The notes beneath the pieces were generated by a model. It saw only the letters and a list, made by a program, of their open reading frames with translations, was not told the origin of the DNA and made no database searches. Position numbers and translations under genes: made by a program. A DNA stretch of 47,670 bases from a virus. Its lineage: Duplodnaviria > Heunggongvirae > Uroviricota > Caudoviricetes. The DNA is taken from the IMG/VR virus record IMGVR_UViG_2627853701_000003; one strand, given 5' to 3'. Of this stretch, positions 11,006-13,946 are shown piece after piece. Position 1 is the first letter of the stretch. Every line of letters begins with the position of its first letter.

Positions 11006-11935
11006 ATGGCAAACACTGCTGAGATATTCAATTTTCCAGTGCCGGATGTGGCACAAAAGGAGCCGCGCGTGGCAGATCTCGATGATGGTTATACGCGCAT
11101 TGCAAATGAGTTGCTGGAAGCTGTGATGCTGGCCGGATTAACACAGCACCAGCTTCTGGTCTTCCTGGCTGTCATGCGCAAAACATATGGCTTTAATAAA
11201 AAACTGGATTGGGTGAGCAACGAGCAACTTTCCGAATTGACCGGGATATTGCCGCACAAGTGTTCTGCTGCAAAAAGCGTTCTGGTAAAGCGTGGGATTC
11301 TTATTCAGAGCGGGCGGAATACCGGCATTAATAATGTGGTCAGTGAATGGTCAACATTACCCGAATCAGGTAAGAAAAATAAAGTTTACCTGAAAGAGGT
11401 AAATTTACCTGAATCAGGTAAAAAAAGTTTACCCAAATCAGGTAAAGACGTTTACCCGAATCAGGTAAACACAAAAGACAAAATAACAAAAGACAATATA
11501 AAACCTTATTCGTCCGAGAATTCTGGCGAATCCTCTGACCAGCCAGAAAACGACCTTCCTGTGGTGAAACCGGATGCTGCGATTCAGAGCGGCAGCAAGT
11601 GGGGGACAGCAGAAGACCTGACCGCCGCAGAGTGGATGTTTGACATGGTGAAGACCATCGCGCCATCAGCCAGAAAACCGAATTTTGCAGGGTGGGCTAA
11701 CGATATCCGCCTGATGCGTGAACGTGACGGACGTAACCACCGCGACATGTGCGTGCTGTTCCGCTGGGCATGCCAGGACAACTTCTGGTCCGGTAACGTG
11801 CTCAGTCCGGCCAAACTCCGTGACAAGTGGACCCAACTCGAAATCAACCGTAACAAGCAACAGGCTGGAGTGACAGCCGGAAAATCAAAACTGGACCTGA
11901 CAAACACTGACTGGATTTATGGGGTGGATTTATGA
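11006..11935 (+). CDS. O: replication initiator O
   Basis: From ATG 11006 with GGGAGG Shine-Dalgarno: MANTAEIFNFP...ADLDDGYTRIANELLEA matches the lambda O N-terminus; ori iterons lie inside the gene; the track ORF starts earlier at 10916. Confidence 0.8.
   Translation: MANTAEIFNFPVPDVAQKEPRVADLDDGYTRIANELLEAVMLAGLTQHQLLVFLAVMRKTYGFNKKLDWVSNEQLSELTGILPHKCSAAKSVLVKRGILIQSGRNTGINNVVSEWSTLPESGKKNKVYLKEVNLPESGKKSLPKSGKDVYPNQVNTKDKITKDNIKPYSSENSGESSDQPENDLPVVKPDAAIQSGSKWGTAEDLTAAEWMFDMVKTIAPSARKPNFAGWANDIRLMRERDGRNHRDMCVLFRWACQDNFWSGNVLSPAKLRDKWTQLEINRNKQQAGVTAGKSKLDLTNTDWIYGVDL
11357..11469. repeat. ori iterons (four to five roughly 19-bp TTTACCnnAATCAGGTAAA repeats) followed by an AT-rich stretch
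   Basis: Copies at about 11357-11373, 11383-11403 (degenerate), 11404-11422, 11428-11446, 11451-11469, then an A-rich tract 11470-11505; same architecture as lambda ori inside O. Confidence 0.7.
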
Positions 11936-12198
11936 AAAACATCGCCGCACAAATGGTTAACTTTGACTGTGAGCAGATGCGCCGGATCGCCAACAACATG
12001 CCGGAACAGTACGACGAAAAGCCACAGGTACAGCAGGTAGCGCAGATCATCAACGGTGTGTTCAGGCAGTTACTGGCAACTTTCCCGGCGAGCCTGGCTA
12101 ACCGTGACCAGAATGAACTGAACGAAATCCGCCGCCAGTGGGTTCTGGCTTTCCGGGAAAACGGGATCACCACAATGGAACAGGTTAACGCAGGAATG
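11932..12198 (+). pseudogene. P: replication protein P, N-terminal fragment (interrupted by IS)
   Basis: MKNIAAQMVNFDCEQMRRIANNMPEQYDEKPQVQQVAQIINGVF...MEQVNAGM matches the lambda P N-terminus; reading frame runs into the IS end (stop TGA is the first 3 nt of the IS). Confidence 0.85.
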
Positions 12199-12240
12199 TG
12201 AACCGCCCCGGGTTTCCTGGAGAGTGTTTTATCTGTGAAC

Positions 12241-13131
12241 TCAGGCTGCCAGATCATCGTTTCCGATGGAAGCATAATAAGCTTTTTCTGCTTCTGCCGG
12301 AGGAGTATGGCCCAGCCTTCCCAGCAATCGTCGATTGTTATACCAGTCCACCCACGTTAGTGTGGCCAGTTCCACTTCTGCACGGTTTTTCCAGCTCTTA
12401 CGGTGTATTACCTCCGCTTTGTAAAGACCATTGATGCTCTCAGCCATCGCGTTGTCATACGAGTCGCCTGTACTCCCTGTTGATGCCAGTAATCCGGCTT
12501 CTTTTAGTCGCTCCGTATAGGCCAGTGACACATACTGAGAGCCTTTATCGCTGTGATGGATGGTGCCAGACGGACGACGGGCCCACAACGCCTGCTCCAG
12601 CGCATCCAGCACGAATGTCGTTTCCATAGACGATGAGACCCGCCACCCCACGATGTATCCGGCAAACACATCAATGATAAACGCCACATAGACGAAGCCC
12701 TGCCATGTGCTGACGTAAGTAAAATCAGCCACCCACAGCTGGTCAGGTCGTTCTGCCACGAACTGACGGTTTACGCGGTCGCCTGCGGCAACGGCTTTCC
12801 GGCTGATGGTCGTACGGACCTTTTTACCCCGGAGAACACCGGCAAGTCCCATAACCGCCATGAGACGTGCCACTGTACATCTGGCCACCCTGATTCCTTC
12901 CCGTAACAACTGACGCCAGACTTTACGCACACCGTACACCTGATGATTTTCATCGTATACGCGCTGTATCTCTCTCTTCAGCCAGTCGTCGTGCTGCGCA
13001 CGGGCACTGCGTTTATCCGGATGATGTCGCTGTTGCTGACAATGGTAATACGTTGACGGGGCAATATGCAGTTCGCTGCATACCGGTCCGACCCCGTACT
13101 GCTCACGCAGCTTATCCAGCAGTGGCATCAT
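12241..13131 (-). CDS. IS3-family transposase OrfB (DDE catalytic domain)
   Basis: 296-aa product with integrase-core motifs (WVADFTYV ... [11 protein letters not shown] ... [15 protein letters not shown]). Confidence 0.8.
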
Positions 13132-13454
13132 TTTTTCCAGAGGCGGTCGAACTCCGCCTTCGCAAAATAAGCGGAAGCCTGGCGAAGGATATCGTTACTG
13201 CGGCGCAGTTCACGATTTTCACGTTCCAGCTCTTTCAGACGCTGACGTTCAGCGCTGGTGAGCCCACCATCACCGCCCCCGGTATCCCGCTCATGCTGGC
13301 GAACCCAGACACGCAGAGTCTCCGGCGTACAGCCAATCTTTGGGGCAATGGAACAAATTGCCGCCCACTGTGAGTCATATTCATCCTGACTTTCCAGAAC
13401 CATACGAATCGCCCGCTGACGGACTTCGGGGGAAAAACGAGTATTTTTAGTCAT
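13128..13454 (-). CDS. IS3-family transposase OrfA (HTH)
   Basis: 108-aa product [64 protein letters not shown]... recalled as IS629/IS1203-type OrfA. Confidence 0.8.
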
Positions 13455-13508
13455 CCTGTTTACCTCTTTCTCAGGGAGTTTAGTCTCCAGGATTTCCGGG
13501 GCGGTTCA

Positions 13509-13946
13509 ATGCGCGTAGCCCGTCGGCAGAATCGACCATTCCTGCCATCACCCGGGCAGTTTGTGGCCTGGTGCCGGGAAGAAGCATCCGTTAACGCCGG
13601 GCTGCCAAACGTCAGCGAGCTGGTTGATATGGTTTACGAGTATTGCCGGAAGCGTGGCCTGTATCCGGATGCAGAGTCTTATCCGTGGAAATCGAACGCG
13701 CATTACTGGTTGGTTACCAACTTGTACCAGAACATGCGGGCCAATGCGCTGACTGACGCGGAATTACGGCGCAAGGCTGCCGATGAACTGACCTGTATGA
13801 CAGCGCGAATTAACCGTGGTGAGACGATACCTGAACCAGTAAAACAACTTCCTGTTATGGGCGGTAGACCTCTAAATCGTGCACAGGCTCTGGCGAAGAT
13901 CGCAGAAATTAAAGCTAAGTTCGGACTGAAAGGAGCAAGTGTATGA
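13509..13946 (+). pseudogene. P: replication protein P, C-terminal fragment
   Basis: MRVARRQNRPFLPSPGQFVAWCREEASVNAGLPNVSELVDMVYEYCRKRGLYPDAESYPW... continues lambda P exactly where the N-terminal fragment stops. Confidence 0.85.

Follow-up and report, generated by a model that had tools for sequence, protein, structure and literature searches.

A complete IS629 element splits the lambda-type replication gene P of an stx-negative mlrA prophage of Escherichia coli O157:H7

The 47,670-nt stretch of caudoviricete DNA in IMG/VR record IMGVR_UViG_2627853701_000003 (hereafter the window) carries a lambdoid prophage whose replication gene P is split by a complete insertion sequence (IS) of the IS629/IS1203 group. 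Our overall account, which we hold with high confidence, is that IS629 transposed into codon 89 of P in an stx-negative O157:H7 prophage located at mlrA and that P function was probably lost. The P insertion is already known: it was catalogued in 2011, and the P fragments are annotated in RefSeq.

The original prediction, made from the letters of the window, had a lambda-like P frame stopping at 12198 and resuming at 13509, with ATG on both flanks as a 3-bp target duplication. Both coordinates hold when the window is read base by base, and the interruption falls directly after native P codon 89. The left junction (12198/12199) reads ...GTTAACGCAGGAATG/TGAACCGCCCCGGG... and the right junction (13508/13509) reads ...CCGGGGCGGTTCA/ATGCGCGTAGCC...; the TGA stop that closes the upstream P open reading frame (ORF; 11932 through 12201) is made up of bases 1 through 3 of the IS. 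The ATG duplication is perfect, with one copy on each flank of the element. In strain EC4115, RefSeq labels the two P pieces “replication protein P, incomplete, missing C-terminus” and “missing N-terminus”; the P locus is a pseudogene, as RefSeq annotates it. Coordinates are collected in Table 1.

In silico excision of 12199 through 13511, which removes the IS and one ATG, leaves 702 nt (233 codons) in frame. The product is identical at 702 of 702 nt to the intact P gene of O157:H7 strain E32511 (WP_000788810.1), bearing out the earlier claim that such a removal restores P exactly. Reconstructed P matches the Pfam family Phage_lambda_P (PF06992) with 208.9 bits against a cut-off of 26, over the whole profile (1 through 162 of 162), and is colinear with lambda P (PDB: 8v9t), with 225 of 233 residues identical. 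The E32511 prophage also supplies the empty site, which reads ...GCAGGAATG/CGCGTAGCC... with a single ATG; this prophage is stx-negative, adjoins mlrA (yehV), and has the same gene order as the window. Neither P halves flanking anything but a bounded IS nor an empty site lacking the single ATG was found in these comparisons, and nothing contradicts the structural account.

A 2388-bp query that joins 11000 through 12198 to 13512 through 14700 aligns in one piece, at 99.9% identity, in dozens of O157:H7 genomes and in O55:H7 strain CB9615. In most IS-bearing genomes among the matches listed, the same query aligns in two pieces exactly 1313 bp apart; the spacing in SS17 and PNUSAE008512 is off from this value by 1 to 3 bp. 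Judged by these alignments, chance is not an issue for the origin of the split-P pattern, because the excised sequence aligns whole in dozens of genomes and is split by 1313 bp in most of those bearing the IS. A 240-bp probe across the left junction, counted if fully covered in one piece, is present in 25 of 5426 complete E. coli genomes, among them EC4115, TW14359, SS17, JEONG-1266, and RM6067W. All serotype-labelled carriers among these 25 are O157:H7, the window junction is 100% identical to that of EC4115 and TW14359, and one IMG/VR contig has it as well; it was found in 0 of 50,697 records of deposited phage genomes. According to the literature, the junction-bearing genomes include strains from the 2006 spinach outbreak. 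On this distribution the insertion is a vertically inherited marker of an O157:H7 sublineage and not a private event, because 25 genomes carry the junction.

These data also bear on whether the split gene is an artefact in which the assembler misplaced a repeated IS. The window does show odd signs of assembly elsewhere, namely a homopolymer frameshift and a 2173-bp duplication whose sharp junctions no complete genome shares. The P junction, in contrast, recurs in 25 independently assembled complete genomes and an IMG/VR contig, and its two sides keep their exact distance in most IS-bearing genomes among the matches listed; a perfect 3-bp duplication is, moreover, the signature of a genuine IS3-family insertion, and the site was published in 2011. 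An assembly artefact is effectively refuted by the shared junction, the 1313-bp spacing, and the 2011 report, and we give it almost no weight.

The insertion corresponds to site IS.36 of Rump et al. 2011 (BMC Microbiol 11:133, Table S2; PMC3271280), placed there at 2971677 through 2972986 in EC4115 and at 2926548 through 2927857 in TW14359. Read as their reverse complement, the flanks in that table, CTACGCGCAT/CATTCCTGCG, give the window junctions, CAT/ATG duplication included. IS.36 and the insertion in the window thus agree in element, orientation, flanks, and 3-bp duplication; the late region of the EC4115 prophage that hosts IS.36 differs from that of the window. The 2011 study classed IS.36 as “backbone”, with no amplification and ND for all typing by polymerase chain reaction (PMC3271280, Table 3). 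By annotation it lies within gene P of the mlrA/yehV prophage, so “backbone” is a mislabel. The insertion had also been predicted to be clean and probably recent, and this is supported: the IS agrees with another EC4115 copy at all 1310 positions, its target duplication is perfect, and neither half of P has changed, all of which indicates that probably little time has passed since insertion, with the qualification that the event is common to the 25 genomes.

The element was proposed to be a 1310-bp IS3-family member of the IS629 type with TG...CA ends, and its inverted repeats, Pfam domains, ALIL motif, and identity to annotated copies confirm this. The termini, TGAACCGCCCC...GGGGCGGTTCA, form inverted repeats that match at 13 of the 13 outermost bases and at 22 of 25 overall. 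The placement of orfA and orfB on the minus strand was likewise correct (13454 to 13128 and 13131 to 12241, respectively); the two overlap by 4 nt, with orfB in the −1 frame. Across this overlap lies the ALIL pseudoknot, found with Rfam RF01497 at 121.5 bits (gathering score 50; E = 2e-32). A −1 shift yields a 404-aa OrfAB, a length that agrees with the 1214-nt “programmed frameshift” coding sequence (CDS) assigned to identical copies by the Prokaryotic Genome Annotation Pipeline (PGAP). Length (∼1.2 to 1.5 kb in the family), imperfect TG...CA repeats, overlapping orfA/orfB, frameshift signal, and 3-bp duplication are all those of the IS3 family, and, naming aside, we see no structural difference from the IS629/IS1203/IS3411 group.

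Assignment to this group was made by identity to copies annotated by PGAP and in strain Sakai. PGAP gives the name “IS3-like element IS1203 family” to many copies with 100% identity to the IS over 1310 bp; the IS matches the EC4115 IS.35 copy, in exo of the Shiga toxin (Stx) 2c prophage, at 1310 of 1310 positions and two Sakai copies (“IS1203 Family: IS3” and “IS629 transposase OrfB”) at 1309 of 1310. Naming differs, with IS1203 used by PGAP and IS629 in the O157 literature; the two are isoforms of one element, target duplications of IS629 are 3 to 4 bp long, and Rump 2011 distinguished three IS629 subtypes that are 4 to 5% apart (PMC3271280). Judged by its PGAP name, the IS may belong to the IS1203-like subtype I. 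No second copy of the IS occurs in the window. From the intact structure and the identity to many dispersed copies, the element is apparently functional, and it would be able to transpose via a circular intermediate.

IS629 had additionally been offered as a hint to an O157 or Shigella host. Matches to the IS occur in 4252 of the 5426 complete E. coli genomes, in up to 53 places per genome, and on 3372 plasmids, including those of Shigella (162), Salmonella (119), and Klebsiella (43). The IS itself says little about the host because its matches are so widespread in E. coli genomes and on plasmids of other genera. By these counts the hint is right in part: on its own the IS marks the host weakly, and it is the exact junction that is specific for the O157:H7 sublineage.

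Table 1. Positions in the window of the split P gene, the inserted element, and the adjoining replication genes
Feature	Coordinates	Strand	Basis
O, replication initiator; 339-aa ORF, intact, holds the iterons	10916..11935	+	Pfam Phage_rep_O, 118 bits
Four iteron-like repeats (ACCYRAATCAGGTAA) within O, undisturbed	11352..11475		Regex scan
P gene, 5' fragment; native codons 1-89	11932..12198	+	ORF extends to TGA 12199-12201
Left copy of target-site duplication; ATG = P codon 89	12196..12198		Window read; single-ATG empty site
Complete IS629 (IS1203 isoform), IS3 family, 1310 bp	12199..13508	-	Identity to annotated copies
IRR, terminal inverted repeat at orfB end	12199..12223		22/25 vs reverse complement of 13484-13508
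orfB, 296 aa; DDE-type transposase, catalytic part	12241..13131	-	Pfam HTH_21 66, rve 96.9, rve_3 44.8 bits
ALIL pseudoknot, stimulator of −1 frameshift	13057..13173	-	Rfam RF01497, full length 1-117
orfA, 108 aa; helix-turn-helix DNA-binding part	13128..13454	-	Pfam HTH_Tnp_1, 47.3 bits
A6 slippery run in orfA stop/orfB start overlap (UGG AAA AAA UGA UG)	13131..13136	-	Sequence read
IRL, terminal inverted repeat at orfA end	13484..13508		Match to IRR
Right copy of target-site duplication; ATG	13509..13511		Window read; empty site
P gene, 3' fragment; native codons 90-233 and stop	13512..13946	+	145-aa ORF 13509-13946, incl. duplicated ATG
ren, intact, directly after P, overlaps P stop	13943..14245	+	PGAP “protein ren”, WP_000145915.1, in EC4115 and E32511

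Under the account we favor, a single copy-out-paste-in transposition would have placed the complete IS629 in codon 89 of P and duplicated the target ATG. Lying antisense to P, the IS stops the frame with its leading TGA after Met89 and leaves an 89-aa stub, and the remaining 144 P codons are without a promoter of their own or an evident ribosome-binding site. A scan of 11800 through 14300 yielded three terminator-like sites and not one promoter-like site. Shuffled sequence gives at least as many, so these signals do not go beyond chance, and we make no claim of polarity or of an outward promoter.

In established lambda biology, P bridges origin-bound O and host DnaB, and a prophage that lacks P cannot begin replication of its own. 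The lambda protein is divided into domain I (residues 1 through 29/40), domain II (∼30 through 119), domain III (120 through 192), and domain IV (193 through 233; PMC12661323). Residue 89, after which P is broken, belongs to compact domain II; no fragment contains the whole of domain II, and the window holds no uninterrupted P frame with all four domains. Loss of the helicase-loader function of P is very likely because the break is inside a folded domain. Neither P piece would be expected to join the O-origin complex to DnaB, and the prophage, with O and iterons intact, would not start its own theta replication upon induction. The original description of the prophage as “replication-defective” is therefore a sound inference from the break in domain II, and the prophage is probably deficient in autonomous replication; what that description has to be restricted by is that the defect lies in a trans-acting protein and that a 98%-identical P is present in the Stx2a prophage of EC4115.

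Some observations weigh against this reading. The 145-aa C-terminal ORF starts with the ATG that the duplication created, and its translation from read-through transcripts is possible in principle; we rejected it as a functional product, given the break inside domain II and the lack of a convincing Shine-Dalgarno sequence before this ATG. Complementation in trans would mask the replication defect, and the further apparent lesions of the window mean that the P insertion need not be what immobilizes the prophage. As to a source of P, the Stx2a prophage at argW in EC4115 has an intact P that is identical to reconstructed P at 229 of 233 residues, and its O is near-identical to the window O in the C-terminal half and different in the N-terminal, origin-binding half. 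Complementation is possible because P acts in trans and the P and O C-terminal half of the Stx2a prophage are near-identical to those of the window; P made by the Stx2a prophage during co-induction could serve a window-type origin. The Stx2c prophage of EC4115 was considered as a further source and rejected: it has a P22-type initiator and helicase module and no P. In our account the lesion would be inherited vertically within the sublineage, complementable by the P of a co-resident lambdoid prophage, and reversible by excision through transposase and the IS-excision enhancer (IEE).

IEE promotes IS629 excision (PMC9943667), and excision dependent on transposase and IEE has reportedly restored lacZ in another Shiga toxin-producing E. 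coli (PMC9397093). Reversion of the P insertion by excision is conceivable from these precedents. They also enter the argument that the insertion is maintained or recurrently selected because it tames the prophage, with no sequestration of DnaB by P and no runaway replication, cargo genes kept, and an IEE route back. P toxicity via DnaB sequestration is documented (PMC4926192, PMC3640518), and lambdoid prophages elsewhere have independent IS3-family insertions in their P-ren segment. In O157:H7 strain 8368, an identical 1310-bp IS lies in P at nt 603 with the duplication CAA (L007, 3957 through 5266); in Z1323CEC0004 an IS3-family element and IS100 truncate P; an IS3-family element separates P from ren in DLI.6n and SW070919; and DLP12 of K-12 has IS3C in renD. 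Set against this, the additional P-ren cases come from a search centered on the region, so their count is biased, and this biased sample proves no hot spot; prophages moreover hold 62% of the ∼20 IS629 copies in O157 genomes (PMC3271280), so chance hits in P are expected. No revertants and no fitness data favoring a selected P insertion were seen. We consider selection for taming improbable. The stronger proposal, that the insertion is a heritable and reversible off-switch for replication that is kept for removing both P toxicity and SOS runaway replication, would have the intact IS and perfect duplication permit rare precise excision and would read the P/ren hits as recurrent selection instead of chance; it strikes us as very improbable.

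The replication module around the split gene is otherwise undisturbed. Genes follow the order O-P-ren, and the P start at 11932 overlaps the O end at 11935. The iteron cores (TCAGGTAA) lie at 11366, 11414, 11438, and 11461 in the regex scan, and by analogy with lambda ori the repeats are presumed to form the replication origin. PGAP calls an identical 1020-nt O CDS in EC4115. Alignment with the O protein of the EC4115 Stx2a phage pairs residue 1 of that protein with a Met located 30 codons downstream of the start of the window O ORF at 10916; the true start of O may be the ATG at 11006.

The window opens just beyond the integrase gene, on the side of the prophage nearer to mlrA, and closes at the start of dinI. 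Its early genes are ordered int-xis-...-exo-bet-gam-kil-...-repressor-cro-like-YdaT-like-O-P::IS-ren, and ren is followed by emrE-ylcJ-ybcK-ybcL-ybcM-ybcN-ninE-ybcO-rusA-ylcG-Q-three tRNA genes-DUF6645-lysis-head-tail. Within the P-to-Q segment (14313 through 20390) ylcJ is frameshifted, and the emrE-ybcM order was checked and is that of K-12 DLP12. From its gene content the window looks like a near-full-length relative of DLP12 that occupies mlrA instead of argU. Between Q and the DUF6645 gene (20390 through 21598) there are three tRNA genes, called Met(CAT), Arg, and Arg by ARAGORN, with PGAP naming the first Ile; no stx genes were found in this interval of the window. We take this prophage to be the stx-negative occupant of the yehV/mlrA site known from the O157 literature.

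The first 22 kb of the window differ from EC4115 by two single-nucleotide polymorphisms and one indel only. Downstream of Q the window departs from EC4115 in several places. The DUF6645 gene (21598 through 23543) encodes 648 aa in EC4115 and is represented by two ORFs in the window, one C having been lost from a CCC run near 22240; the gene may truly be a pseudogene, or the homopolymer may have been misread in sequencing. The segment 25481 through 27653 is a 2173-bp direct duplicate of 31644 through 33815 (99.9% identical, one mismatch and one indel). This upstream copy stands in for ∼2469 bp of EC4115 that extend from the end of the lysis region through Rz and terS and cover the first ∼729 nt of terL, and the duplication junctions are sharp and without microhomology. 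None of the 5426 complete E. coli genomes and no IMG/VR sequence has junction A of the duplication, and 22000 through 34000 has no one-piece match among the complete genomes, the best being 99.6% in three pieces; the 2.17-kb duplication reflects a private rearrangement or, alternatively, an assembly error. A real duplication would make the prophage defective in packaging as well. The late region (27652 through 47670) matches that of the EC4115 mlrA prophage at no more than 97.0% identity (545 mismatches, 29 gaps), and its last 3.7 kb (tail fibre to dinI; 44000 through 47670) are 99.4% identical to Sakai Sp15; the EC4115 prophage has an IS1 near its dinI-proximal end. These patterns suggest a mosaic late region that arose by recombination between co-resident lambdoid prophages.

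Such lesions raise the question of whether the P insertion was inconsequential, being one of several decay lesions in a prophage that was already dead. The window is without Rz, terS, and the start of terL and has a duplicated head segment in their place, its DUF6645 gene is frameshifted, and the stx genes are absent; its relative DLP12, which shares the order ren-emrE-ylcJ-ybcK-ybcL-ybcM and carries an IS3 in ren, is heavily decayed. The prophage with the same P insertion in EC4115 tells against prior decay: int, xis, exo/bet/gam, repressor, O, Q, lysis, terminase, portal, capsid, and tail genes are annotated as intact there, and its early region shows no evident lesion apart from the IS. The late-region rearrangement, moreover, is private to the window. 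We regard prior decay as a doubtful explanation, if a tenable one, and retain the account in which insertion of IS629 probably cost a nearly full-length prophage its P function.

Comparison with related systems places the insertion among known arrangements. Lambda P (PDB: 8v9t, 6bbm) is colinear with the 233-aa P of the window and stands in the same O-P-ren order, and differs in that the window gene is interrupted after codon 89. DLP12 (peaD - renD::IS3C - emrE - ylcJ - ybcK - ybcL - ybcM) shares the downstream gene order and an IS3-family hit in the P/ren segment; unlike the nearly full-length prophage at mlrA in the window, it lies at argU, is mostly deleted, and retains P as a 312-bp remnant, with a 1258-bp IS3 in ren. 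Sp15/VT1-Sakai, the Stx1 prophage at yehV in O157:H7 Sakai, has the same chromosomal site, a similar late and tail region, and one IS629. In contrast to the window, Sp15 has an intact P, stx1AB, and a different nin region without emrE/ybcK, and the gene hit by its IS629 is that for the head protease/scaffold; at the stx1 position of Sp15 the window has the three tRNA genes and no stx.

The feature is real, ordinary, and already known; its significance beyond bookkeeping is small, and it makes no open question newly testable. It does correct the record, in that the “backbone” site IS.36 of Rump 2011 is prophage gene P, and the junction marks the EC4115/TW14359/SS17 group of O157:H7 and could serve as a typing target. 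For the biology of O157, the insertion is a further example of IS629 disabling prophage functions, and it bears on which prophages still replicate, recombine, or mobilize alongside Shiga-toxin phages.

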